Source of the DNA: an uncultured Collinsella sp. | Lineage (GTDB): Bacteria; Actinomycetota; Coriobacteriia; Coriobacteriales; Coriobacteriaceae | Direction: 5' to 3' | DNA length: 64,000 bases | Assembly (NCBI GenBank): GCA_902405995.1 | Contig: CABPCG010000005.1 | Span: forward strand, 7,116 to 71,115 | In this document: one piece after another, positions 5,027 through 58,478 of the stretch | Position numbering within the stretch: position 1 is the first letter of the stretch | How the letters are laid out: each line of letters starts with the position of its first letter | Program-made: the position numbers and the translations under genes | The notes under the pieces: model-generated | What the model was told of the DNA's origin: nothing | Databases searched by the model: none | The model's input: the letters and a program-made list of their open reading frames with translations, nothing else

Positions 5027-5057
5027 TGTGACAAAGGGGCAGTCCCTTTGTCACATT
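5025..5057. repeat. Palindromic extragenic element family 1 copy (aatgtgacaaaggggcagtccctttgtcacatt)
   Basis: Near-perfect 31-nt palindrome overlapping ABC gene stop codon TAA; same sequence recurs at 8 or more other sites. Confidence 0.85.
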
Positions 5058-5136
5058 GGGGGCCCAATTACCGTTCGGCACGTTAAGGGTCCCCGCTCCC
5101 CGCTTAACACTTGACGAAGAATCTCCATCTTTATAT

Positions 5137-5152
5137 ACCTATCGGTAGGCAT
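5137..5152. promoter_or_regulatory. Putative TetR-type operator motif (acctatcggtaggcat) overlapping -10-like tttatata upstream of MFS transporter
   Basis: Shares CGGTAGG(C/T)AT with two motifs in the TetR/deiminase divergent region (7332-7344, 7374-7391); preceded by ttgacg -35-like hexamer at 5111. Confidence 0.35.
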
Positions 5153-5185
5153 ATAGGTTGCATTGCCGATAGAAACGGAGTAACC

Positions 5186-6466
5186 ATGACTCTCATCGCA
5201 CCAGCCGAAAAGGACCGCCCCCGTGAGAGCGGCGCATTTGCTTGGATTGTCGTTATTGCGCTCGGTTTAATGTCTGCGGGAACAACCGGCACCTACAGCA
5301 TCATTGCCGGCTCATTCATCGCTCCTGTATGTGAAGACCTGGGCTTTGACTACACTTCTTTCTCTTTCTATTTCACCGCGATTCTTCTTGGCCTTGCGCT
5401 TGGGCTTCCGCTTTTGAGTCGTTTCATTCCAAAAGTAATCGGCAAACCATGGCATATTTGCGTTGAACTCGTCCTTATTGCCGCCGGCGCCGCAATGGCG
5501 TTCTACACCGAGGTCTGGATGTTCATCGTCTCCGCCGCAGTGATCGGCATCTGCTTTTCGTTCACAACGGGTGTCTGCATGTCCGATGTCATTGACCAAT
5601 GGTTCAGTAAATCGTCTGGTCTTGCCATCGGCCTTGCGTGGGGCGTTAATTCTCTCTGCACGCTGCTATTGAGTCCTGTCATTACACTGGTCATCGAGCA
5701 GCAAGGCTGGCGTACGGGTTACATCGTACTTGCGGCCGTTTCTGCAGCCATGATATTGCCCACAAGCGCATTTATCATTCGCCTTAAGCCTTCTGATCGC
5801 AATATGCTTCCGTACGGAGAGACTACCTCCGAAACCCATGAGAGCTACAGCGCCGATGAAAAGGAAGATGTCTCTTCGGGCATGGCGCTCCGCGATGCCG
5901 CGAAAACGCCATCTTTTATTCTCTGTGCCCTTCTGCTCTGCGTGGCGCAACTCACCTGCTGCATGAACCAGCTGTTCCCGACCTATGCAAGCGAGGTCGG
6001 CTTCAATCCCATCGTGGGAAGCCTAATGGTTTCGGCGGCCTCGCTCTCCGATATTTTCCTAAATCCCTTCGTAGGCAAAACATGCGACAAGCTCGGTGCT
6101 ATTAAAGCAACGGTCGCATGGACGGGAGTCAGCATTCTTTCATTCCTACTTCTCATCTTTGGCGGAAGCAACGAGACCGTTTCCATCATCGCGGCCGGCG
6201 TAAACGACGTCATGTTCGCCATCGTTGGAACTGCAATGCCGATGATTCTCCTCTCGCTCTTCGGATCACGCGATTTTGGAAGGATCTATTCGATTATTTG
6301 CTCAGCGGGCTATGTTGTCGGAGCTTTCGGAATGCCAGTCATGATGAAGGTTTACGGTATGGCAGGGTCTTTCCAAGGAGTATTCGTCTTCTGTATCATC
6401 TGCAACCTTCTGATTGCGACATTTGCTTTAGTTTCCGGTATCCTCAATAAGACTACCGTGAAATAA
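5186..6466 (+). CDS. MFS-family transporter (paralog of 9908..11173)
   Basis: 12-TM hydrophobic profile, approx 50 percent identity by eye to second MFS ORF (shared AGTTGSYSIIAGSFIAPVCE, CCMNQLFPTYA, FGSRDFGRI motifs); ATG with GGAG RBS at 5174. Confidence 0.7.
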   Translation: MTLIAPAEKDRPRESGAFAWIVVIALGLMSAGTTGTYSIIAGSFIAPVCEDLGFDYTSFSFYFTAILLGLALGLPLLSRFIPKVIGKPWHICVELVLIAAGAAMAFYTEVWMFIVSAAVIGICFSFTTGVCMSDVIDQWFSKSSGLAIGLAWGVNSLCTLLLSPVITLVIEQQGWRTGYIVLAAVSAAMILPTSAFIIRLKPSDRNMLPYGETTSETHESYSADEKEDVSSGMALRDAAKTPSFILCALLLCVAQLTCCMNQLFPTYASEVGFNPIVGSLMVSAASLSDIFLNPFVGKTCDKLGAIKATVAWTGVSILSFLLLIFGGSNETVSIIAAGVNDVMFAIVGTAMPMILLSLFGSRDFGRIYSIICSAGYVVGAFGMPVMMKVYGMAGSFQGVFVFCIICNLLIATFALVSGILNKTTVK

Positions 6467-6520
6467 CCTGACCAACGAACTGCCCTTCAGCCCTGTCATT
6501 TGTCTCCGCAAGTTAAAACG

Positions 6521-6563
6521 AAATTGGGGCCGATTCCAACATAGCTGGAATCGGCCCCAATTT
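6521..6563. terminator. Bidirectional intrinsic terminator hairpin (17-bp perfect stem aattggggccgattcca / tggaatcggccccaatt)
   Basis: Perfect inverted repeat between convergent MFS (+) and TetR (-) genes, followed by T-rich tract. Confidence 0.6.
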
Positions 6564-6668
6564 CTATTCAACAACTTTTGCAATCATCGCGAACACGGGT
6601 TTCGAACCATTCCGCGACCCCGCAAGTCGTCGCATCGCGCTTGCCAAGGTGCCTCTGTTATTACGCGC

Positions 6669-7232
6669 CTATTTAAACATGAGTTCGACGATCCCTGCCC
6701 AAACAGCCTTTTCATCGATGTCTTCATCTTGGGCAACGGTATTGCTCGCTCCCTCAAGTACGGTGTAAAGAATCTGCACGTACAGCATGACGTCTGTTTC
6801 ATCGGAAAACGCGCCAATTTCTAGGCCATGGAGAAGGATGTCTTTAAGCGCGTCCATAGTTCGGTTGATCGCCGTTGCCTGACGTTCCTGAACTGCAGGG
6901 ATTCGATTTGCCTGAATACTGACCTCGGCCAGCACGCGACGGCGCTTTTCATCACTACGATAGCCACCTATAACCGAATTGCCGAGCTCGATAAGCGCCG
7001 CCTTGAATCCGTCCCTATCGACTATTAGCGAGTAGTCGCGCTGATAGTCGATAGTCGGAAACATACTATCTAAGAGCGTGGTGAAAATATCCTCTTTAGA
7101 GGGAAAGTAGTAGTACACCGATGGCTTGGATATACCGACACGGTCGCAGATTTTTCCAATGGACGCCTTGTCGTAACCGACTTCTGCCACAAGATCATAC
7201 ATTGCGTCCAATATTTTTCCCTTTGTGCTCAC
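6669..7232 (-). CDS. TetR/AcrR family transcriptional regulator
   Basis: N-terminal HTH signature ILDAMYDLVAEVGYDKASIGKICDRVGISKPSVYYYFPSKEDIF typical of TetR_N; divergent from deiminase gene. Confidence 0.85.
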   Translation of the reverse strand: MSTKGKILDAMYDLVAEVGYDKASIGKICDRVGISKPSVYYYFPSKEDIFTTLLDSMFPTIDYQRDYSLIVDRDGFKAALIELGNSVIGGYRSDEKRRRVLAEVSIQANRIPAVQERQATAINRTMDALKDILLHGLEIGAFSDETDVMLYVQILYTVLEGASNTVAQDEDIDEKAVWAGIVELMFK

Positions 7233-7373
7233 GCTTCACTTCTCCATTGCAAATCACTTCCGCATTGCCAACATTATTAAGAATGGCAACGGAACATCAA
7301 TTCGTGTCCAAACACGACCACTATAAACGGTGAACGGTAGGTATCGACAGGCGAATGGCAATTATACAAAAAC

Positions 7374-7391
7374 ACCTACCGAACGGTAGGT
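7374..7391. promoter_or_regulatory. Perfect palindromic operator candidate acctaccg-aa-cggtaggt (plus related direct motif gaacggtaggtat at 7332-7344)
   Basis: 8-bp inverted repeat in the 240-bp divergent region between TetR and deiminase-family gene; motif CGGTAGGTAT also upstream of MFS at 5141. Confidence 0.4.
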
Positions 7392-7471
7392 ATAGTAGTA
7401 CTATAGCTGGTGTAACCCCGCTATTGTCGCGGCCGGACAGCATTGCGGGAAACCCGACGGAAGGACCAACC

Positions 7472-8710
7472 ATGTACGAGAACTATCGTATGCCGGGCGA
7501 GTTTGAGAAGCGCTCCAACGTCTATGTGACATGGCTTCCCGATTACATTCGCGCAGAGGGCTTCGATAATCGCCAGCCCTGCGTTGACGTAATTAAAGCT
7601 TTGCTTGAGTATGGCGACGTTACGGTCAATCTCAACTGTGGCACCCCCGGCTCCTACGAGGAAGCCTGCTCGCGCCTTAAAGAAGAAGGGGTGGATCTCG
7701 ACCGTATCCAGATTACGCAGTTCGAAGACTCCAACTTCTACGTTCGCGACAACGGCCCCAGCATCATGGTCGACGACGAAGGCCATTCCTATATGGTCAA
7801 CCCCGCTTGGACCTATTATGGCGTGTGGGACAAGAACTCCCCAGAGTGCCAGTCCGCACGCAGGGCAGCTGTTCACATGGCGGTTGCGCTCGGGTGCTTC
7901 GATATCGTCAATTCCGAAATGGTTTCGGAGGGCGGCGACCGCGAGTTTGACGGTCACGGCACCCTGATCGCCATCGAGGACACGGAATGCCGCAAGCGCA
8001 ATCCCGAGTTCTCAAAAGAGGAAGTGGAGGCCGAGTACAAGCGCATCTACAACCTCAACAAGGTTATCTGGCTGCCGCAGCCTATGCTTGAGGACGACGA
8101 CTATCGACTGGGCATCCTCGACGAGAAGGAAGATGGAACTCCTGTCTTCGGCATGAGCTTCGCCGCCCACATCGATGAGATGTGCCGCTTTATCACCCCG
8201 AACAAGATTCTTCTTGCCGAGGTATCCGATGAGGAGGCCGCCTCGAGCAAGGCGGGCGCGGAATCGCATCGTCGCATCGACGCCGCCTACGAGATTCTAC
8301 GCGCCGAGACGGACTGGGAGGGCAAGCCCTTCGAAATCGTCCGCATGCCCACTGCCGAGCCGATCGAGGTTGTCATCGCTCCCGGCGACGAGGACTACGA
8401 GCTGTATAAGGGCTTCATCGACGAAATGGGCGGCAAGTTCATGGATGGCACCCCTTGGCCCGAAGGCCCCGTTCACTTTTATGCCGCAGCAAGCTACTGC
8501 AACTTCCTCATCTGCAACGGCGTCGTTCTTGGCCAGCGTTATTACCACGAAGGCATGAGCGAAGTCGTGAAGGAGAAGGACGAGCAGGCCAAGGCGGTTC
8601 TTGAGAGCTGCTTCCCCGATCGCAAGGTCATCATGATCGACTCTCTCGCGCTTAACCTGTCCGGCGGCGGCGTGCACTGCTGGACCAAGGACGTGGCCGC
8701 CAGCTGCTAG
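7472..8710 (+). CDS. Agmatine deiminase / porphyromonas-type peptidyl-arginine deiminase family enzyme (guanidino-group deiminase), approx 412 aa with insertions
   Basis: N-terminal YRMPGEFEK (agmatine deiminase hallmark), FYVRDNGP (WxRD-like), SEGGDREFDGHGT, C-terminal catalytic LSGGGVHCWTKD (GGGxHC); start chosen at ATG 7472 with GGAAGGA RBS because upstream ATG 7355 would place operator palindromes inside CDS. Confidence 0.75.
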   Translation: MYENYRMPGEFEKRSNVYVTWLPDYIRAEGFDNRQPCVDVIKALLEYGDVTVNLNCGTPGSYEEACSRLKEEGVDLDRIQITQFEDSNFYVRDNGPSIMVDDEGHSYMVNPAWTYYGVWDKNSPECQSARRAAVHMAVALGCFDIVNSEMVSEGGDREFDGHGTLIAIEDTECRKRNPEFSKEEVEAEYKRIYNLNKVIWLPQPMLEDDDYRLGILDEKEDGTPVFGMSFAAHIDEMCRFITPNKILLAEVSDEEAASSKAGAESHRRIDAAYEILRAETDWEGKPFEIVRMPTAEPIEVVIAPGDEDYELYKGFIDEMGGKFMDGTPWPEGPVHFYAAASYCNFLICNGVVLGQRYYHEGMSEVVKEKDEQAKAVLESCFPDRKVIMIDSLALNLSGGGVHCWTKDVAASC

Positions 8711-8831
8711 CAAGTTCTTAAACTTGCGCTGCCTGATCCAAGCGCCACATTTACAGTCCCCGAGGGATATCCGTGTTTCCCTCGGGGGCGCATTCGACAC
8801 TTACCCATCAAACAATTGAAAGGAAATAGGC

Positions 8832-9896
8832 ATGAACAACAGCCTTCGCGGTCGCGACTACCTCAACATCCACGATCTTTCCTCTGAGGATTTCCGTTAC
8901 CTCATCGATCTTGCCTGGAACCTCAAGGCCCAGAAAAAGTCCGGTGTCGACCAGCGCTACTTCCCCGGCAAGAACGTTCTCGCCAACTTTGAGTGGGGCT
9001 CGACCCGCACTCGTTGCGCCTTTGAGACCTCTTGCAACGACCTGGGCATGGGCTTCACCTATCTGACCAACTCCCACATGGGCGATTGCGAGACCATCGA
9101 GGATGCCATGCGCGTCTTCAACGGCATGTATGATCTCATTGTCTATCGTGCACAAAAGGACGAGCAGTTCCTCTATGATGTCGCCGACTTGGTCGATATT
9201 CCAGTCATCAATGCCCTCACCCTCGGCGATCACCCGACCCAGATGCTCGCTGACGCTCTCACGATGGAGGAGCAGTGGGGTGGTCTGCGCACGAGCCGTG
9301 GCAAAAAGATGGCCTTCGTTGGCAACTGCGCCGGCGCCCCCGTGTGGTATGGCCGTCTGTGCGCGATGCTCGACATGGACTTCCTCGCCATCGGCCCCGA
9401 CGACCTCCGTCACCAGATGTGCAAGGAAATGATCGAGGAGGTTGAGGCCTGCTACGCCAAGTACGCGCCTAACAGGACCTTCACCATCACCTCTGACCTT
9501 GATGCTCTGGACGGTGTCGACGTAATCGTTACCGAGGAGTGGCGCTACATCAACCCCGAGTGCGGCGACGAGGTTCTGGACCCTGACGACTACAACTCTT
9601 GGCTTGGCGACGCCGAGTCCCTGTACCCCTATCGCGTCACCAGTGAGCTGTGCAAGCGCACCAACAACCCCGACATCTTCTGCATGCACGAGCTCCCCTC
9701 TGTTCACAACGCAAATCACCGCGTTGGCAAGATGTTGCTCGACCAGTGCAAGAACGACCTGCATCGTGAAATCATCACCGAGGGCTTTGAGATTGCGGAC
9801 GAGTGCTTTGAGGCCAACGCGTCGGTCATCTTCCGTGAGGCAGAGAACCGTCAGCACACCATCAAGGCCGTTATGTGCGCCCTTCTGGGTCTCTAG
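8832..9896 (+). CDS. Ornithine/putrescine carbamoyltransferase-family enzyme with variant substrate-binding motifs (HELP instead of HCLP; no SMG loop)
   Basis: STRTRCAFE carbamoyl-phosphate motif, HPTQMLADALTMEE, C-terminal AENRQHTIKAVM all conserved relative to OTCases; substrate loops read TEEWRYINPE and FCMHELP. Confidence 0.75.
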   Translation: MNNSLRGRDYLNIHDLSSEDFRYLIDLAWNLKAQKKSGVDQRYFPGKNVLANFEWGSTRTRCAFETSCNDLGMGFTYLTNSHMGDCETIEDAMRVFNGMYDLIVYRAQKDEQFLYDVADLVDIPVINALTLGDHPTQMLADALTMEEQWGGLRTSRGKKMAFVGNCAGAPVWYGRLCAMLDMDFLAIGPDDLRHQMCKEMIEEVEACYAKYAPNRTFTITSDLDALDGVDVIVTEEWRYINPECGDEVLDPDDYNSWLGDAESLYPYRVTSELCKRTNNPDIFCMHELPSVHNANHRVGKMLLDQCKNDLHREIITEGFEIADECFEANASVIFREAENRQHTIKAVMCALLGL

Positions 9897-9907
9897 GAGC
9901 TGTATCA

Positions 9908-11173
9908 ATGGAAAATGCAAAGTTAAAGAGCAGCAAGGTTTACGCATGGGTTCTCGTGATCGCGCTCGGCCTCATGTCTGCCGGTACGACCGGATCCTAT
10001 AGCGTAATCGCTGGCTCCTTCGTCGCGCCCGTGTGCGAGGAGTTCGGATTTGACTACTCCATCTTCTCGTATTACTTCACTGCAACGCTCATTGGTCTTG
10101 CAGCGGCTCTTCCGTTTGTCGGAAAACTCATCCCCAAGGTTGTTGGCAAGTTTTGGCTCCCCGTCGTCGAGCTTATTCTGCTCGCCGCTGGCGCAGGCAT
10201 GGCCTTCTACACCGAAGTCTGGATGTTCATCGCAGCTGGTGCTTTGATTGGCGTTTGCTTCGCCTTCACTACCGGCGTCGCCATGTCCGATGTTATTGAC
10301 CAGTGGTTCAAAAAATCTGGCGGCCTGGCAATTGGTCTCGCTTGGGCAGTGAACTCGATTTACATGCTCATCATGAGTCCCGTCATCACCTCTGTCATTG
10401 AGGCTGCTGGCTGGAGGACTGGTTATCTGGTGCTCGCTGGCGTCTCCGCCGTGCTCATTCTTCCCGCTTCCATCCTGATTATCCGCTATAAGCCCCAGGA
10501 CAAGGGCATGCTGCCCTATGGCTATGTCGAAGGCGAGACGGTCGCCGAGACCGAGGAGACGACCGAGGATAGTGCACGTGGCGTTAGCTACGCACGCGCT
10601 ATTAAGTCGCCTGCATTCTTTTTCTGCATCGGCTTCCTCTGCCTCGTTCAGCTTACTTGCTGCATGAACCAGCTGTTCCCCACCTATGCCGCCGAGGTCG
10701 GCTTTAGCCCCATGGTGGGTGGCTTCATGGTTTCCGCCGCATCGCTGTTCGACCTGTTCCTCAACCCGATCGTCGGTACCACTTGCGATAAGTTTGGCAG
10801 CACCAAGGCCATTCTGAGCTGGCTCGCCGTCTCGATTCTCTCCTTTGTCATGCTCATGATGAGCAGCGGCAACTCGACGCTCAGCATTCTTGCTGCCGGT
10901 GTTAACGACGTCATGTACGTCATCGCCGGCACCGCTCTGACCGTTTTGGTGATGGACGTCTTTGGCTCCCGTGACTTTGGTCGCATCTTCGCGCTCATCT
11001 GCTCCGTGGGCTATATCGTCGGCGCCTTTGGCATGCCCGTCATGATGAAGGTATACGAGCTTGTCGGCTCCTTCCAGGGCGTTTTCATCTTCTGTATTGC
11101 ATGCAACGTCATCATCGGTCTGTTCTTGCTGCTGGCAAAGAAGACTGGTAAGAGCCTCTCTTGGGACGAATAG
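9908..11173 (+). CDS. MFS-family transporter (paralog of 5186..6466)
   Basis: Shared motifs with first MFS ORF; 12 predicted TM segments; ATG with GGAGC RBS. Confidence 0.7.
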   Translation: MENAKLKSSKVYAWVLVIALGLMSAGTTGSYSVIAGSFVAPVCEEFGFDYSIFSYYFTATLIGLAAALPFVGKLIPKVVGKFWLPVVELILLAAGAGMAFYTEVWMFIAAGALIGVCFAFTTGVAMSDVIDQWFKKSGGLAIGLAWAVNSIYMLIMSPVITSVIEAAGWRTGYLVLAGVSAVLILPASILIIRYKPQDKGMLPYGYVEGETVAETEETTEDSARGVSYARAIKSPAFFFCIGFLCLVQLTCCMNQLFPTYAAEVGFSPMVGGFMVSAASLFDLFLNPIVGTTCDKFGSTKAILSWLAVSILSFVMLMMSSGNSTLSILAAGVNDVMYVIAGTALTVLVMDVFGSRDFGRIFALICSVGYIVGAFGMPVMMKVYELVGSFQGVFIFCIACNVIIGLFLLLAKKTGKSLSWDE

Positions 11174-11223
11174 TTCGATTCGTCTTAGTCATACGCTGTA
11201 GGAGTTAATCTGCAGCAGCTTTA

Positions 11224-11252
11224 GGGCATCGGCTAACGCCGGTGCCCTTTTT
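11224..11252 (+). terminator. Intrinsic terminator (gggcatcggc taac gccggtgccc + TTTTT)
   Basis: GC stem-loop followed by T5 run 50 nt after MFS stop. Confidence 0.6.
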
Positions 11253-11257
11253 CATGG

Positions 11258-11290
11258 AATGTGACAAAGGGACAGTCCCTTTGTCACATT
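11258..11290. repeat. Palindromic extragenic element family 1 copy (aatgtgacaaagggacagtccctttgtcacatt)
   Basis: Exact consensus palindrome between convergent MFS (+) and membrane protein (-) genes. Confidence 0.9.
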
Positions 11291-11296
11291 GGGCGC

Positions 11297-12430
11297 CTAG
11301 CTCGTTTTGCCCACCAACGTGATACGGATGCTTGGATGGGTGTACTCGTCAAACTCGTCCTCGGGCTCCGTGTCAAACGAATAGTACGTTTTGATGGGGT
11401 TGTCACTCGTCCTGATGGAGATTCTCTCGTAGAGCGAACCGTTCAAAAAAGCCTGCCTAAACTCTTCGGGGAGCTTTTGCGGTGCTAGGAGCTCGGGACT
11501 CATGGTCTTGACGTCTACGGTTTGGACGACAGAGGAAAGTTCGTCCAAGTCGAGCTCGATGCGGGCGAGGTTGTCCTCAAGGCTCGCGTCGGGGTCGATC
11601 TCTGCTATGTAACTCACTTCCTTGAGCGTTCCCTTGTTGTCAAAGTCCAGATACGTATAGGTCTTCTGGGCGTCGGAGTCGCCTTCGTGCAGATAGCCGC
11701 GGACATGATAGCCGTAATCTTGATATCGCTCGTAGGGGTCATCGGCGGACACGTACTCGCATGCGGGCTCTAGCGTCTTGCGGGCGATGGCGATCTGCTC
11801 GGCCGCGGCCGCGGCATTCTCCTGCATCTCGATGTTTCCCTGTGCCAGCTGCGGGATATAAGCACCGCACACGATTGCGAGGGGCAGCGCCACAAGTGCG
11901 ATGATCCACTTTTTTGCACGGGGGATAGGCACGCTATAGGCCTCCGCCATGGCCTTTGCGTTGGCATAGCTTTCGGTAAGTACGTCCGCTGCGGTGGCGA
12001 CGGCGCCTACGGCAGCGGCGACTTCTGCCGCGCCGCCCAGGTTGCGCACGGTCGCGTTATCGCTGTTCTTAAGCAGGCGCGCGGCAGCCTGCGTACCGAT
12101 AACGCCTGCGATTTGTGCCGAGCGGTCTTTCTCGGTCTGCTCGACGACGAGTCGGTGCTGCATTTCCTTCCATTGCTTGCCGCGCATGCCAAAGCGCGGC
12201 GCGAGCGCGCAGTAGCAGAATATGACGAGCTCGATGGCAGTGAGCGCCAAGGCGGTCATCATGCCCGTCTCTTGGAAGCCTTCGTGATGGAAGACGATAT
12301 CGTCGATCATTTCGAAGGGAATGATCAAAAAAGGCAGCACGAACGCCATGGCAAGCGCTGCACCGGCAATCTTGGGATAGATGCAGTATCGCTGGATACG
12401 CTTGCGTTCTTGTTCGGAAATTGTTGCCAT
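11297..12430 (-). CDS. Hypothetical membrane protein (3 TM + approx 190-aa extracytoplasmic C-terminal domain)
   Basis: ATG at 12430 (MATISEQERK) with AAGGA RBS; hydrophobic segments IAGAALAMAFVLPFLIIPF, MMTALALTAIELVIFCYCALAP, WIIALVALPLAIVCGAYIP; no recognisable catalytic motif. Confidence 0.5.
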   Translation of the reverse strand: MATISEQERKRIQRYCIYPKIAGAALAMAFVLPFLIIPFEMIDDIVFHHEGFQETGMMTALALTAIELVIFCYCALAPRFGMRGKQWKEMQHRLVVEQTEKDRSAQIAGVIGTQAAARLLKNSDNATVRNLGGAAEVAAAVGAVATAADVLTESYANAKAMAEAYSVPIPRAKKWIIALVALPLAIVCGAYIPQLAQGNIEMQENAAAAAEQIAIARKTLEPACEYVSADDPYERYQDYGYHVRGYLHEGDSDAQKTYTYLDFDNKGTLKEVSYIAEIDPDASLEDNLARIELDLDELSSVVQTVDVKTMSPELLAPQKLPEEFRQAFLNGSLYERISIRTSDNPIKTYYSFDTEPEDEFDEYTHPSIRITLVGKTS

Positions 12431-12493
12431 GGCTGGTCCTTGGTGTCGTAACGGTCGTTGCGGCGCATGGGGCGCGGGGCGCATCAGTTTGAG

Positions 12494-13021
12494 CTAGCGC
12501 TGGATAAGAACATAGAGCAAGATGCTCATCGCGATGAGCAAGAAGCCTGCGATGTTAAACATCAGTGTGGCAAAGTTGCCCACGATGGGGCGTTCGACAT
12601 AGCTTTTGTCTGGGTTGCTGGGGTTGTAGTACACGGTCATTTGGCTACCGAGGGGCCAAAGCTGCTCCGCGAGGGTGCCTAGGCGGGCGATGGGGCCTGT
12701 CTGCACGTGCAGCCAGCCCTTGGCGTCTTCGTAGGCGGTGGCTTGCGTGCGGATGGGGAGTCCCGACAAGCTTTTGGTCTTTATGCCACGGAATTGTTTT
12801 TTCGCGCGGTATTGCGTGCCGTCGACGGCGTATTCCAAAACGGGATACATCCTGCCTTCGCCCATAAAGCGATGGTCGATGACCGTTCCCATGGTCACGG
12901 CGGTACAGGCCTTGGCTTTCTTGCGAGCGGCGGCTTTCATGAGCGCGCTCACTCCGATAAGCAGGATGCCGATGCCCCCAACCAAGATGAGCGCGAGCAG
13001 GGATATCTGCGACGTGGTCAC
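12494..13021 (-). CDS. Small membrane protein, TM-soluble domain-TM architecture (DUF3592-like)
   Basis: N- and C-terminal TM helices flanking an approx 110-aa domain; co-directional and adjacent to previous gene (probable operon). Confidence 0.5.
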   Translation of the reverse strand: MTTSQISLLALILVGGIGILLIGVSALMKAAARKKAKACTAVTMGTVIDHRFMGEGRMYPVLEYAVDGTQYRAKKQFRGIKTKSLSGLPIRTQATAYEDAKGWLHVQTGPIARLGTLAEQLWPLGSQMTVYYNPSNPDKSYVERPIVGNFATLMFNIAGFLLIAMSILLYVLIQR

Positions 13022-13111
13022 GGCGTTCTCCTTTGGCGCGATACCGTCATATGTGACCCAGTATAGAGAATCCCGCCATCGATGAGCTATTGCGGGGGGG
13101 GGTCAATTCTG

Positions 13112-13144
13112 AATGTGACAAATGGACTGTTCCTTTGTCACATC
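13112..13144. repeat. Palindromic extragenic element family 1 copy, slightly degenerate (aatgtgacaaatggactgttcctttgtcacat)
   Basis: Same arms TGTGACAAA..TTTGTCACAT; in divergent intergenic region. Confidence 0.8.
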
Positions 13145-13147
13145 GGG

Positions 13148-13345
13148 GACTGCGGAATCGAGGTCTAATACTTTTCCCGAGAAGTGAACGAGTGAAAACG
13201 GACTCCCGAAGCATCGACACTTTTGGCGTGCAATTTCCTGCGGTTTTGCCAGTCAAATCCTGCGGTTTTGACGCCTAAAAATGTCAATGCTTCGGGGGTC
13301 CAAATAGAGCCGTTCACTTCTCGGGAAAAGTATTAGACCTCGAAA
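13148..13345. repeat. Large imperfect inverted repeat (arms approx 65 bp, 32-nt perfect core cgaggtctaatacttttcccgagaagtgaacg) flanking approx 65-bp centre containing direct repeat cctgcggttttg x2; MITE-like or structured RNA
   Basis: Left arm 13148-13213 and right arm 13279-13345 are reverse complements (perfect over 32 nt, approx 75 percent over remainder). Confidence 0.7.
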
Positions 13346-13397
13346 TATGGGCGGCGTTCGCGAACGGCAACTAGCTTGCGTCCGGTAGCCGGCACTT

Positions 13398-13424
13398 GGG
13401 GCAAAGGGACTGCCCTTTTGCCCC
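13398..13424. repeat. Variant palindrome related to family 1 core (ggggcaaagggactgcccttttgcccc)
   Basis: Shares AAAGGGAC.GTCCCTTT-type core but with GGGGC arms instead of TGTGAC. Confidence 0.6.
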
Positions 13425-13508
13425 TTCACCATTGCATCGTATCTGGTGTGGAAAAAATATCGCCTGCGTTCTCGCGCCTGCGAAGAGTTCCTGAACCGCT
13501 TGAATGGG

Positions 13509-13539
13509 ATGTGACAAAGGGACTGTCCCTTTGTCACAT
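13509..13539. repeat. Palindromic extragenic element family 1 copy (atgtgacaaagggactgtccctttgtcacat)
   Basis: Exact palindrome 15 nt upstream of Dus start codon. Confidence 0.9.
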
Positions 13540-13553
13540 TGATTTGAGAGTGG

Positions 13554-14516
13554 ATGTTGATGAATTTATCGCTGGCCCCTATGGAGGGGATTACCGGGCA
13601 TGTGTTCCGTCGCGTGCATGCGGAGTGCTTTGGCGCGCTCGATTGTTATTACACGCCGTTTTTGCCGCCGCCGCGGGTGGGCAACCGCTTTGGTGGCAAG
13701 GCGTTTAAAGAGGTCGATCCTGCCAATAACCAGGGGCTTAACGTAGTACCTCAGCTGATGTCCAAGAATGCGGACGAGTTTGTGTGGGCGGCGCAGGTGC
13801 TCGCCGAGATGGGGTACCGCGAGGTCAATCTCAACCTTGGCTGCCCCTCGGGTACGGTTGTTGCCAAAGGCAAGGGTTCGGGCTTTCTGCGCAACCTGGA
13901 TGAGCTCGAGGTGTTCTTGAGCGACGTGTGCGAACGCTCACCCTTGCCGGTGTCGGTCAAGACCAGGCTGGGGTTGGAAAGCGATGACGAGTACGAACGC
14001 GTGCTCGACCTCTATTGCCGCATGCCGCTGGCAGAGCTGATCGTGCATCCGCGCGTGCAAAAGGACCGTTATACGGGCTCGCCGCGTAAAGAGTTTTACG
14101 GCGAGACGTTGGAGCGGGCGCCGTTTCCCGTGGCCTATAACGGCGACATCTTTGATCTTGAGGACATGGATGCGCTGGTGGGGGCCTATCCCGGAACACG
14201 CCACGTAATGTTGGGGCGCGGCTTGCTCGCGAACCCCGCGCTGGCTCGCATGGTTAAGGGCGGCCCTGCCGCCACGGCTGCCGAGTTGCAGCGCTTCCAC
14301 GACACGCTGTTTGCGGCCTATGCGGACGAGATTGGGGGCAACGCGGTCTTTCGCATGAAGGAATGGTGGTTCTACGCCAAATGTGCCTTCGCCGATCCTG
14401 CTACCGTGCACAAGCTCGTGCGCAAGACCAAAAAGGTCGACGAATACCGCGCCGCCGTCGAGCGCGTCTTTCGCGAGCAGCCGCTCGCGCCTGTTGCCCG
14501 CTTTTGTGGCTACTAG
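13554..14516 (+). CDS. tRNA-dihydrouridine synthase (Dus family)
   Basis: LAPMEGITGHVFR, NLNLGCPSGTVVAKGKGSGFL FMN/active-site motifs, TIM-barrel length. Confidence 0.8.
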   Translation: MLMNLSLAPMEGITGHVFRRVHAECFGALDCYYTPFLPPPRVGNRFGGKAFKEVDPANNQGLNVVPQLMSKNADEFVWAAQVLAEMGYREVNLNLGCPSGTVVAKGKGSGFLRNLDELEVFLSDVCERSPLPVSVKTRLGLESDDEYERVLDLYCRMPLAELIVHPRVQKDRYTGSPRKEFYGETLERAPFPVAYNGDIFDLEDMDALVGAYPGTRHVMLGRGLLANPALARMVKGGPAATAAELQRFHDTLFAAYADEIGGNAVFRMKEWWFYAKCAFADPATVHKLVRKTKKVDEYRAAVERVFREQPLAPVARFCGY

Positions 14517-37667: not shown

Positions 37668-39671
37668 ATGTCGAAGCAAGCGGTCGTTGGAATCTTGGCG
37701 CATGTCGATGCCGGCAAGACCACGCTGGCCGAGGCTATGCTGTTCAACGCGGGCCGCATTCGCAAACGCGGCCGTGTGGACGATGGCGATTCGCACCTGG
37801 ACACGAACGCGATCGAGCGCGAGCGCGGCATTACGATCTTCTCGTCGCAGGCCGTGCTCGACCACGGCGATGCCCACGTCATGCTCGTGGATGCACCCGG
37901 CCACGTCGATTTTTCGGCTGAGGCGGAGCGCACGCTGCGCGCGCTCGACTATGCGATTTTGGTTGTGGGTGCCAACGATGGCGTGCAGGGGCACACCGAA
38001 ACCCTGTGGCGCCTGCTTGCACGCTATGACATCCCGACGTTCATCTTTATCAACAAAATCGATTTGGAGAATCCCGGTCGCGATGTTTTGCTGGCACAGC
38101 TGGGGCAGCGTCTTTCCGAGGGCTGCCTGGATGTCAACGAACTGCTGGCGGGCGGCGCCGTTCAGGAGGACGCTGCTGCGTTGGACGAAGCGGCGCTCGA
38201 GGAGTTTCTTGAAGCGGGTGAGCTTTCTGTCGCAACGCTGTCGCGCATGGTTGCCGAGCGCAAGCTCTTTCCCTGCTTTGCCGGCTCGGCGCTCAAGGAC
38301 CAAGGCGTTGACGAGCTGCTGGATGGTATATGCGCGCTGATTCGTGAGCAGGCGTGGCTCCCGGAGTTTGCCGCGCGCGTCTATCGTGTCAGCCGCGGGG
38401 ATCGTGGCGAGCGCTTGGCTTGGGTTAAAGTGACCGGCGGCACGCTGCGCGCAAAACAGATGATCAGCGGGCATTCCAGTGCCGAGGCGTGGGAACAGAA
38501 GGTCGATCAGGTACGCATCTATAACGGCGAGAAGTATGAGCTTACCCAAGAAGTTGCTGCTGGCGGTATTTGCGCCGTGACGGGTCTTGCGCACGTTCGC
38601 CCAGGGGACGCCCTGGGCACGGAGCCCGCGGGCGATGCGCCCGTCATCGCTCCGGTCCTCACCTATACGGTGCTGCCGGGCGAACACGACGTTCATGCGG
38701 TGTTTAAAGCGCTGAGTGAGTTGGCGGACGAAGATCCCATGCTCGGCGTAAGCTGGAATACGCATCTTGAGCAGATCCATTTGCAGTTGATGGGCGCTGT
38801 GCAACTCGAGGTCGTGCAGCGCGTGCTGGCCGATCGTTTTGGCCTTTCGGTCGAGTTTGAGTCTGGCGGCATTCTCTATAAGGAGACGATCTCGCAGCCG
38901 GTCGAGGGCGTGGGCCACTTTGAGCCGCTGCGCCACTATGCCGAGGTGCATCTGCGCCTGGAGCCGTTGCCAGCAGGTTCGGGCGTGCAGTTTGGCACCG
39001 TGACCTCGACCGACGAGCTCGATCTTAACTGGCAGCGTCTGGCACTCACCAACGCCATGGAGCGCGACCACCTGGGCGTGCTGACCGGCTCGCCCATCAC
39101 CGATGTGCGCATTACGCTCACGGGCGGCCGCGCGCATGCCAAACACACCGAGGGCGGCGATTTTCGCCAGGCCACGTACCGCGCGATTCGCCAGGGTTTG
39201 ATGCAGGCGCGCGAGGCGGGTGCGGCGGTGCTGCTGGAGCCGTGGTACCACTTTGAGCTCGAGGTGCCGGGGGAGTGCGTGGGCCGGGCGCTCTCGGATG
39301 CCACGCGCATGGGTGCCGAGTACGAGCCGCCGACGATGGCGGGCGACCGGGCGAAGCTTGTGGGTCGCGTGCCGGCATCCGAGGTGCAGGATTATGCGCT
39401 GGAGGTGGCTGCCTACACGAGCGGTCGCGGGCATCTGTACCTGGAGTTCGCCGGTTATGCGGCCTGTCATGATGCCGAGCGCGTCATCGAGGCGGCCGCC
39501 TATGAGCCCGAGGCCGATCTGCCCAACACACCCGACTCGGTTTTTTGCTCTCACGGCGCCGGCTACACGGTCAAATGGTACGACGTACCCGCCGCGGCGC
39601 ACGTAAAGGTCGATCCCGCCACCTTCCGTCCCTGGCGAGCGGCAGACGCCGAGTTTTTCGGCCACATGTGA
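37668..39671 (+). CDS. Translation-factor GTPase of the Tet(M)/Tet(O) ribosomal protection protein / EF-G paralog family
   Basis: N-terminus GILAHVDAGKTTLAE, ERERGITI, DAPGHVDF, FIFINKID match RPP G-domain; FPCFAGSALKDQGVDELLDGI as in Tet(M); 667 aa; stop codon embedded in palindromic element. Confidence 0.7.
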   Translation: MSKQAVVGILAHVDAGKTTLAEAMLFNAGRIRKRGRVDDGDSHLDTNAIERERGITIFSSQAVLDHGDAHVMLVDAPGHVDFSAEAERTLRALDYAILVVGANDGVQGHTETLWRLLARYDIPTFIFINKIDLENPGRDVLLAQLGQRLSEGCLDVNELLAGGAVQEDAAALDEAALEEFLEAGELSVATLSRMVAERKLFPCFAGSALKDQGVDELLDGICALIREQAWLPEFAARVYRVSRGDRGERLAWVKVTGGTLRAKQMISGHSSAEAWEQKVDQVRIYNGEKYELTQEVAAGGICAVTGLAHVRPGDALGTEPAGDAPVIAPVLTYTVLPGEHDVHAVFKALSELADEDPMLGVSWNTHLEQIHLQLMGAVQLEVVQRVLADRFGLSVEFESGGILYKETISQPVEGVGHFEPLRHYAEVHLRLEPLPAGSGVQFGTVTSTDELDLNWQRLALTNAMERDHLGVLTGSPITDVRITLTGGRAHAKHTEGGDFRQATYRAIRQGLMQAREAGAAVLLEPWYHFELEVPGECVGRALSDATRMGAEYEPPTMAGDRAKLVGRVPASEVQDYALEVAAYTSGRGHLYLEFAGYAACHDAERVIEAAAYEPEADLPNTPDSVFCSHGAGYTVKWYDVPAAAHVKVDPATFRPWRAADAEFFGHM

Positions 39672-39697
39672 CAAAGTGGCAGTCCCTTTGTCACATG
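39665..39697. repeat. Palindromic extragenic element family 1 copy (catgtgacaaagtggcagtccctttgtcacatg)
   Basis: Overlaps stop codon TGA of GTPase gene. Confidence 0.85.
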
Positions 39698-39764
39698 CTA
39701 TTGGTATAACTTGGTATAAGTTGGTATAACTATTATCAGGGTTTGCCAATCCGAGGAGGCCGAC

Positions 39765-58274: not shown

Positions 58275-58308
58275 TAGAAAAGGGGCGCTGTGCATAGACA
58301 GCGCCCCT
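58275..58308 (-). terminator. Riboswitch expression-platform terminator (GGGGCGCUGU-CUAUGC-ACAGCGCCCC + UUUUCUAU)
   Basis: Perfect 10-bp GC stem followed by U-run on minus strand between TPP aptamer and thiM RBS. Confidence 0.7.
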
Positions 58309-58321
58309 AAAAAGGCGGCAT

Positions 58322-58412
58322 GCTCCCTACGCCAGCATTAACTGACAGGTTCAAAGGATTGGGCCCCATGCCCTCTCAGCCTTGTGGTTTGCACCGCCGG
58401 CACTCCCGCATC
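58322..58412 (-). ncRNA. TPP (THI-box) riboswitch aptamer
   Basis: Minus-strand sequence GGAGUGCC...GCUGAGAGG...CCUUUGAACCUGUCAGUUAAUGCUGGCGUAGGGA matches THI-element consensus (CUGAGA, ACCUGAUC-like, GCGUAGGGA). Confidence 0.85.
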
Positions 58413-58478
58413 GAATCTGTTGTTCCCTATACTAGCGCATCGGTACAATGGTTACGATGAAAACGACTGGGGGACCCT

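Follow-up and report, generated by a model that had tools for sequence, protein, structure and literature searches.

A dispersed palindromic repeat of Collinsella, present beside REP-like hairpins in the dus/DUF3592 intergenic region

Introduction

Small, non-coding palindromic repeats have been described in several groups of bacteria. The Correia elements of Neisseria (CREE/NEMIS) occur in hundreds of copies per genome with duplication of a TA target; they are documented to contain promoters and IHF sites and to be processed by RNase III. The ERIC/IRU, BOX, RUP, and bcr1 repeats of Proteobacteria and Firmicutes are imperfect palindromes of about 100–200 bp, each found in one genus or family and of uncertain function; RUP and bcr1 have defined target duplications. 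REP and BIME sequences are short imperfect palindromes, extragenic and present in many copies per genome, and a REPIN is a long hairpin of two inverted REP units, which in a REPIN/RAYT system is accompanied by a RAYT (Y1 transposase) gene with REPs on its flanks. Some insertion sequences target REPs, and those known carry a transposase gene of their own; such targeting is the subject of Tobes and Pareja (2006), as cited in PMC8040213 (ref. 26 there). A MITE is small (under ~500 bp) and non-coding, has terminal inverted repeats and a target-site duplication of fixed length, occurs at multiple unrelated polymorphic sites, and is related to an autonomous insertion sequence with matching ends. In invertons, inverted repeats enclose an asymmetric segment that is seen in both orientations at one locus.

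Here, we describe an element that resembles each of these systems in part. It lies upstream of dus in a 64-kb stretch of DNA from an uncultured Collinsella sp.; we call the whole stretch the window, and all coordinates refer to it unless a contig is named. The element is a Collinsella-specific, non-coding dispersed repeat with a core of 186 bp, or about 215 bp with its extensions, and is classed with the MITE, REPIN, ERIC, and Correia-type repeats.

Results

The intergenic region at 13022–13553 (532 bp) lies between a divergent gene for a DUF3592-family membrane protein of 175 aa (12494–13021, minus strand; from the ORF list, Pfam PF12158, E=3e-10) and dus, the gene for tRNA-dihydrouridine synthase (Dus; 13554–14516, plus strand; Pfam PF01207, E=8e-36). 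The sequence-only reading had described this divergent region as packed with repeats, among them three copies or variants of a palindrome, and these are found at 13113–13143, 13396–13426, and 13509–13539. The first, ATGTGACAAATGGACTGTTCCTTTGTCACAT, and the third are 94% alike; the third is a perfect copy located 14 nt upstream of the dus start. The middle one, TTGGGGCAAAGGGACTGCCCTTTTGCCCCTT, is a degenerate variant (68%) at the junction where another contig, L014, has an extra ~2.8 kb. Most of the region is a strain-variable block of 417 bp (13092–13508), comprising a G9 homopolymer tract, the first palindrome, the element, its right extension, and the variant palindrome. The tract (13094–13102) is ~70 nt upstream of the start of the DUF3592 gene and varies in length among strains, being C9 in the window and in L122, C7 in L129, and interrupted in L126.

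The long inverted repeat with a 32-nt perfect match, also reported in that reading, was recovered by repeat search as two arms of 67 nt (13158–13224 and 13277–13343), 85% complementary and 52 nt apart. This refines the boundaries of the core to 13158–13343, with an nhmmer/HMM match at 13157–13344. The perfect arm end, CGAGGTCTAATACTTTTCCCGAGAAGTGAACG, occurs once per strand (13159–13190 and 13311–13342), and none is expected in shuffles. From the outside inward, the core consists of outer arms (13158–13190 and 13311–13343), non-complementary bulges (13191–13199 and 13302–13310), middle arms (13200–13224 and 13277–13301), and an asymmetric center (13225–13276). The center carries a direct repeat twice, as had been noticed: TCCTGCGGTTTTG at 13236–13248 and again at 13258–13270, 22 nt after the first, both on the plus strand and nearly invariant across the family. 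Weakly conserved inverted extensions beyond the core reach about 13144 and 13356. The left one, CGGGGACTGCGGAA (13144–13157), for which the family consensus is ..CCYTTGCGAAAT, fills the 14 nt between the first palindrome and the left end of the core, and the right one, AATATGGGCGGCG (13344–13356), is its weak mirror. A further ~25 nt to the right of the core (..GTTCGCGAACGGCAAC..) is common to the palindrome-associated subfamily, as seen in the right flanks of contexts (3,0), (3,30), (2,10), and (15,18).

Five mechanical ORFs of 50–110 aa overlap the region. None of the five has a Pfam match, and the frames over the element are broken by 1-nt indels between copies. Coding potential was therefore rejected, in agreement with the earlier remark that no ORF explains the structure.

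The 31-nt palindrome is itself abundant. There are 7 close copies in the window, where 0 are expected, and 144 copies in 888 kb, or once per 6.2 kb. They are extragenic, after stop codons and between genes. Thus, the palindrome has the properties of REP and BIME sequences, being short, imperfectly palindromic, extragenic, and present in many copies per genome.

The element has only one copy in the window. When species-representative genomes were scanned with an exact 20-mer of the arm, ACTTTTCCCGAGAAGTGAAC, at least 119 genome loci were matched, and nhmmer on the fetched loci gave 127 element copies. Nearly all of the loci have Collinsella titles; a few are labeled only Coriobacteriaceae or 'uncultured bacterium', and one (L069) is labeled Acutalibacteraceae, which we take to be mis-binned. 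The flanks of the 127 copies cluster into roughly 15–20 distinct contexts, and at least nine genomes have two or more copies. The copy number per genome appears to be low, a few copies, in contrast to the bursts of classical MITEs; an estimate from contig-end positions was abandoned because a long palindrome can itself break assemblies. Identity among copies ranges from 63 to 99.5%, with a median of 78%. Paralogues within one genome are 73–90% identical, and each is closer to its own orthologue elsewhere, so that there is no sign of recent transposition. All copies are intergenic, 9–130 nt from gene ends, in divergent, convergent, and tandem arrangements and with no preferred orientation relative to the neighboring genes. 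Homology between differently placed copies ends within a few nt of the same termini, ..(AAAT)CGAGGTC...GACCTCG(ATTT)...

The element is absent from phage and plasmid collections by blastn and from viral contigs by pattern search. No description of it was found in the literature searched, nor anything on Collinsella repeat families, and its sequence is absent from the supplementary files searched (200 of 408; PMC8040213).

An alignment of 81 distinct copies (A1) shows that the terminal inverted repeats are conserved throughout. Near-invariance is seen in the two direct repeats, in the outer arms (GGTCTAATACTTTTCCCGAGAAGTGAACGA plus its complement), and in the middle arms (ACCCCCGAAGCATCGACAC and GATGCTTCGGGGGTCC). 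The variable parts are the bulges that follow the outer arms, the stretches next to the direct repeats, and the spacer that separates the repeats. Outer arms are of two co-varying types, GGTCTAATAC/GTATTAGACC and AGGTGAATGG/CCATTCACCT, apart from a few chimeras, and both types are found together in one genome. Subfamilies also differ in having the center inverted relative to the bulges. Since the loci were found with an exact 20-mer, the conservation of the outer arms is partly an ascertainment effect. That of the middle arms and direct repeats is real because these were not selected for by the scan. Within orthologous sets, moreover, the arms and direct repeats change 2–3 times more slowly than the spacers and bulges; in context C, column identity is 0.86–0.92 in the conserved blocks and 0.59–0.75 in the variable ones. 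This block-wise pattern suggests that the DNA may be recognized by a protein, either a mobilizing enzyme or a host factor. In paralogues this old, near-invariant blocks exceed the expectation for a decaying selfish element, which hints at some host-level function.

We also compared the element with known sites. The direct repeat has a 9-nt match (CCTGCGGTT) to the 3' strand of 16S rRNA helix 45. Neither this resemblance nor any to dif/Xer sites, LexA boxes, integron attC, or IHF sites fits the defining consensus or spacing.

What, then, could the element do for its host? It might not be mobile, or no longer be so, and serve instead either as an RNA with a long hairpin or as a DNA module bound by protein. 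The RNA could block transcription in both directions, be cut by RNase III, or stabilize mRNA, roles of the kind proposed for ERIC, BOX, and Correia elements; the DNA module would be recognized via its conserved arms and two central direct repeats. We regard this as unlikely, though with a real minority chance. The conservation just described, in copies of only 78% median identity, speaks for it, as do the short distances to gene ends and the folding. The predicted folding energy of the region is −123 kcal/mol for the plus and −121 kcal/mol for the minus strand (z-scores −13.4 and −14.4), and every copy of the family folds as a hairpin with 64–76 pairs and −80 to −117 kcal/mol. However, the other properties of an RNA are missing. 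No Rfam family was found at the element at gathering or permissive thresholds, with only chance-level miRNA matches (E about 1) in 12950–13650. There is no strand bias: the mean folding energy is −101.7 kcal/mol for the plus and −98.0 kcal/mol for the minus strand, a difference of −3.7 ± 9, 48 of the 81 copies fold more stably as the plus strand, and counts of G-U and A-C mismatches in these copies give no RNA-strand signal. In the alignment, which is biased by the way the copies were found, hairpin pairing is 86.7% compared with 85.9% in column shuffles, and the inner variable helix is often unpaired; covariation is not convincing. Since pairing is close to the shuffled control and there is no strand or orientation preference, the arms are conserved as sequence rather than as pairs. 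This fits DNA recognition better than a free-standing RNA gene, and the large structured ncRNA that had been offered as one reading is disfavored. Nor is a host role as such easily reconciled with the arrangement of the copies. The element stands in either orientation to its neighbors, so that either the direct repeats or their complement would be present in read-through RNA, and some subfamilies have the center turned around with respect to the arms. At the dus locus, many strains lack the copy and do well. No sigma-70-like promoter site was found in 12900–13700 and no terminator-like site in the element. Read-through transcripts may carry a passive hairpin. The only Rfam match in the window is a TPP riboswitch, which lies outside the region.

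Strains with an identical DUF3592 protein carry either a long or a short allele at the dus locus. The long allele, with the element, is present in the window and in L122, L126, and L129, counting as 8 of the 24 contigs read. The short allele, in L121, L123–L125, L127, L128, and L130, counts as 14 of the 24; it lacks 13092–13508 and has a single palindrome, that at 13509–13539. Filled and empty alleles were found at four sites in all, the dus locus and three others, of which two are empty in the window. At context C, seven genomes have the element and nine lack it, and the junctions show an 8-nt direct repeat, CGAGGGGC. At contexts 7|13 and 7|10, which include the window palindromes at 5027 and 11260, filled and empty alleles differ with a 4–5-nt repeat, TGGG/GGGSC, at the junctions. 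The palindrome at 5027–5055 is just 3' of the stop codon of an ABC-transporter permease gene; the site is empty here and filled in L020, L021, and L022. That at 11260–11288 lies between a convergent MFS gene and a gene for a 395-aa membrane protein; the site is likewise empty here and is filled in L022 (7079), L100, L101, and L034 (7270). There are also truncated derivatives: L064 keeps 56 nt of the element, the L082 type keeps ~10 nt, and L081 is also truncated or deleted. Some 'empty' alleles may be deletions rather than pre-insertion sites.

Nearly half of the copies keep a regular distance from the palindrome. In 58 of the 127 copies, a palindrome lies 15–20 nt from one end of the core; this holds for at least five contexts that are independent of one another, the end is usually the same one, and in one further context a canonical GC-rich terminator hairpin takes the position of the palindrome. 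At filled sites, the 14-nt 'linker' between palindrome and core belongs to the inserted DNA and forms a weak continuation of the inverted repeat. Palindromes are found at other indel junctions as well: the ~6.2-kb segment between 5055 and 11260 is missing in other genomes, with palindromes at the junction. The proposal that the region is a hotspot where repeats nest is thus supported, with the 417-bp block as a strain-level indel beside a palindrome and with palindromes and element at indel and rearrangement junctions.

The same observations can also be read without a mobile unit: segmental duplication or REP-anchored recombination would have carried an ancestral palindrome to a few sites, and differential deletion would have shaped the present distribution. 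Three element sites lie within one 10-kb neighborhood, each beside a palindrome, and this, together with the common truncated derivatives, the age of the paralogues, and the palindromes at the junction of the ~6.2-kb segment, is what would be expected. However, about half of the contexts (B, C, 6|5, 8|x, and 12|x) have neither a nearby palindrome nor shared flanking homology, and there the homology stops a few nt from the same termini, as for a discrete unit. The direct repeat at the junctions of context C is also difficult to explain in this way, and we give this scenario a small chance.

Copies of the element also appear to recombine. A given flank can be found with more than one partner flank and next to one or the other end of the element (7|0, 7|10, 7|13, 2|10, 0|2, 8|12, and 12|19), which is the result expected of recombination between copies, and the element is found at synteny breakpoints. 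At the dus locus of one genome, L066, the flanks are 96–99% identical to the window, and the sequence enclosed by the outermost ~22 nt of the arms is reverse-complemented. A recombinase that flips the segment between inverted repeats and so alters the expression of the flanking genes, as in an inverton, would account for an asymmetric center bounded by such repeats and for both orientations at one locus with a crossover in the outermost ~22 nt of the arms. One global invertase could serve several dispersed copies, as Mpi of Bacteroides fragilis does. We nevertheless consider an inverton very unlikely. The inverted orientation is present in only 1 of about 22 genomes at the dus locus, and no other context among the 127 copies has both orientations. 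There is no promoter-like site inside the element and no recombinase gene adjacent to it in the window or in the context representatives, and arms of 67 nt with a center of 52 nt are atypical. The data are accounted for by rare inversion, through recombination or template switching between the long arms. A chance local duplication-inversion confined to the dus locus, single-copy and unconserved, which had been named as the refuting outcome and which the single copy in the window would by itself allow, has virtually no chance of being right, given 127 copies in many contexts at the loci of other genomes.

We searched for an enzyme that might mobilize the element. Beside the window copy and the copies representing the other contexts, there is no transposase or recombinase gene. 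Across 957 kb of Collinsella DNA, there is no longer element with matching ends, the HMM giving only full or truncated elements. An exact-match metagenome scan for an arm followed by a non-element interior gave one match, L120, which was rejected as an autonomous partner since the contig is chimeric and of low coverage. A tblastn search near the copies, with a RAYT and an IS200 TnpA sequence, gave one unrelated IS200-like gene only. This gene is private to L090, where it is inserted 35 nt from an element, and orthologous loci lack it; a link to IS200 or RAYT was dismissed. The 395-aa protein was considered as a hidden recombinase and also rejected: this membrane protein matches nothing in Pfam or PDB, its one NCBIfam match is sub-threshold and negligible, and the recurrence of its gene near several copies reflects one shared neighborhood. 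There is no consistent target duplication of fixed length, with candidate repeats of 8 nt at context C and of 4–5 nt at 7|10 and 7|13, and none visible elsewhere. The idea of a non-autonomous transposable element is thus borne out by dispersal, by filled and empty alleles, and by terminal inverted repeats, and falls short in its target-site duplication and in an autonomous partner or transposase.

Discussion

The explanation that we prefer, at slightly better than an even chance, is that the element is an old, low-copy, non-autonomous palindromic repeat, which was inserted beside hairpin repeats by an enzyme acting in trans and is now mostly inherited vertically. The past spread of the element would have depended on this enzyme, which would insert it beside hairpin-forming palindromes or terminators, after ...GTCACATTG/GGGSC. 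Such insertion would resemble the targeting of REPs by some insertion sequences. The present copies would be old paralogues, passed on mostly by vertical inheritance, and their long arms would promote inversion as well as recombination between copies and the deletion of part or all of a copy. Thus, the element was probably inserted beside hairpin repeats and is now mostly immobile but recombinogenic. At the dus locus, it would have arrived, or been lost, within the 417-bp block beside the palindrome upstream of dus. If the element is read through, the transcript would contain a hairpin of roughly 75–90 bp, a candidate barrier or RNase III substrate; there is no indication of a specific role in dus expression.

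A different account, to which we assign a low probability, is that the element is a sequence-constrained module recognized as a hairpin or cruciform. In one variant it would be an actinobacterial counterpart of REPINs, mobilized in single-stranded form by an enzyme (HUH, Y1, or other) docking on REP-like hairpins. In the other, it would be a domesticated protein-binding site, whose arms and two direct repeats, 22 bp apart, organize recombination or transcription at several loci. Either variant would explain together the near-invariant blocks, the fixed spacing from the hairpin, and the missing target duplication and classical transposase.

Collinsella is an abundant and very diverse genus of the human gut. 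By inversion, exchange, and deletion at its long arms, the element marks structural variation, and since element and palindrome mark the breakpoints of indels and rearrangements, they help to explain structural variation at the strain level. They are possibly also behind breaks in Collinsella MAG assemblies. The natural long and short dus alleles in near-identical strains are a ready test of the effects of a hairpin repeat on its neighbors. Should a dedicated binding protein or a hairpin-directed mobilization enzyme lie behind the block-wise conservation, REP/REPIN-type biology would be extended to the Actinomycetota.

Correia elements are among the systems closest to the Collinsella element. 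Both are small (about 100–190 bp), non-coding, and intergenic, and both form a hairpin of the whole unit via long terminal inverted repeats. Both have two types of terminal repeat with occasional chimeras and a conserved internal block that resembles a protein site, and both are polymorphic in presence among strains and have no known cognate transposase. They differ in the high copy number, the duplicated TA, and the promoters, IHF sites, and RNase III processing of the Correia elements; in the Collinsella element, the copy number looks low, and there is no consistent duplication and no promoter-like site.

The likeness to REP systems is of two kinds. The 31-nt palindrome is REP-like in being extragenic, often just after stop codons, and in occurring about once per 6 kb, and the fixed distance of the element from it recalls the REP-targeting insertion sequences, which, however, bring their own transposase. 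The element, as a long hairpin of two inverted units, is like a REPIN, but it is not a doublet of the 31-nt REP because its arms are unrelated in sequence to the palindrome. It also differs from REPIN/RAYT systems in that the search near the copies turned up no RAYT or Y1 transposase.

ERIC/IRU, BOX, RUP, and bcr1 are similar to the element in size, in restriction to one genus or family, in occurring in either orientation, in modular structure, and in uncertain function; they are known from transcribed intergenic regions, and the Collinsella element is likewise intergenic. Their sequences are not similar to it, and they belong to Proteobacteria and Firmicutes rather than to the Coriobacteriia (Actinomycetota); the target duplications of RUP and bcr1 also have no defined equivalent here. 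With invertons, the element has in common inverted repeats around an asymmetric segment and both orientations at one locus, but its inversion is rare, its arms are much longer than the center, and no promoter or invertase is evident. Like a MITE, it is small and non-coding, with terminal inverted repeats, at multiple unrelated polymorphic sites, although no related autonomous insertion sequence with matching ends was found in the 957 kb of Collinsella loci. The element therefore differs from the known families in sequence, host phylum, low copy number, and the lack of a defined duplication. As far as these sequence comparisons go, it is a previously undescribed, genus-specific palindromic repeat of ~190 bp of the MITE/REPIN/ERIC-like kind.

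A segment of about 6.2 kb in the window (5056-11259), which carries MFS transporter genes along with a TetR-like gene, is flanked on its two sides by copies of the 31-nt REP-like palindrome (5027-5055 and 11260-11288). The segment is missing from the L034, L059, L039 and L119-type Collinsella genomes, where the end of the ABC transporter and one palindrome directly join the gene for a 395-aa protein. The presence or absence of 5056-11259 looks like an indel with the REP-like palindromes as its boundaries. The 395-aa gene (11297-12484, minus strand) encodes a predicted membrane protein that is conserved in Collinsella. Searches with this protein gave no match in Pfam or the PDB, and only a negligible, sub-threshold hit in NCBIfam. 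At another palindrome in the window, 39667-39695, a short tandem repeat, ttggtataa(c/g), follows directly in three copies (39696-39730).

The palindrome at 13509-13539 has a perfect 15-bp stem, and it ends only 14 nt ahead of the dus start codon. It is present in both alleles of the locus, the long one with the block 13092-13508 and the short one without it. This palindrome might influence the initiation of dus translation or transcription. On the other side of the intergenic region, a G9 homopolymer (13094-13102) is located about 70 nt upstream of the start of the divergent DUF3592 gene. The length of this tract varies by strain, with nine residues in the window and in the L122 locus and seven in L129, while in L126 the tract is interrupted. 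Such a tract, in a promoter region, might serve phase variation by slipped-strand mispairing. The sole Rfam match within the 64-kb window is a TPP riboswitch on the minus strand (58307-58417; 56.4 bits, above the gathering score).

L120 (1-3627) is a human-gut metagenome contig of low coverage (2.3x), in which a Collinsella stretch of about 170 nt is fused to low-GC DNA; the stretch includes the initial ~45 nt of a copy of the 186-bp palindromic element. The low-GC part looks foreign to Collinsella, and the contig is probably an assembly chimera formed at the repeat.

At the L090 locus, an IS200-family element (577-1320) with a frameshifted Y1 transposase and terminal hairpins has inserted close to one of the palindromic elements, at a distance of 35 nt. 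This insertion is not present at the orthologous loci L103, L112 and L054.

In several species, a histidine-kinase/response-regulator operon is bracketed by two copies of the palindromic element that point the same way and are separated by 3-5 kb, as seen at L041 (1736-6887) and likewise at the L077, L111, L049 and L009 loci. The kinase-adjacent copy is missing from nine other genomes.
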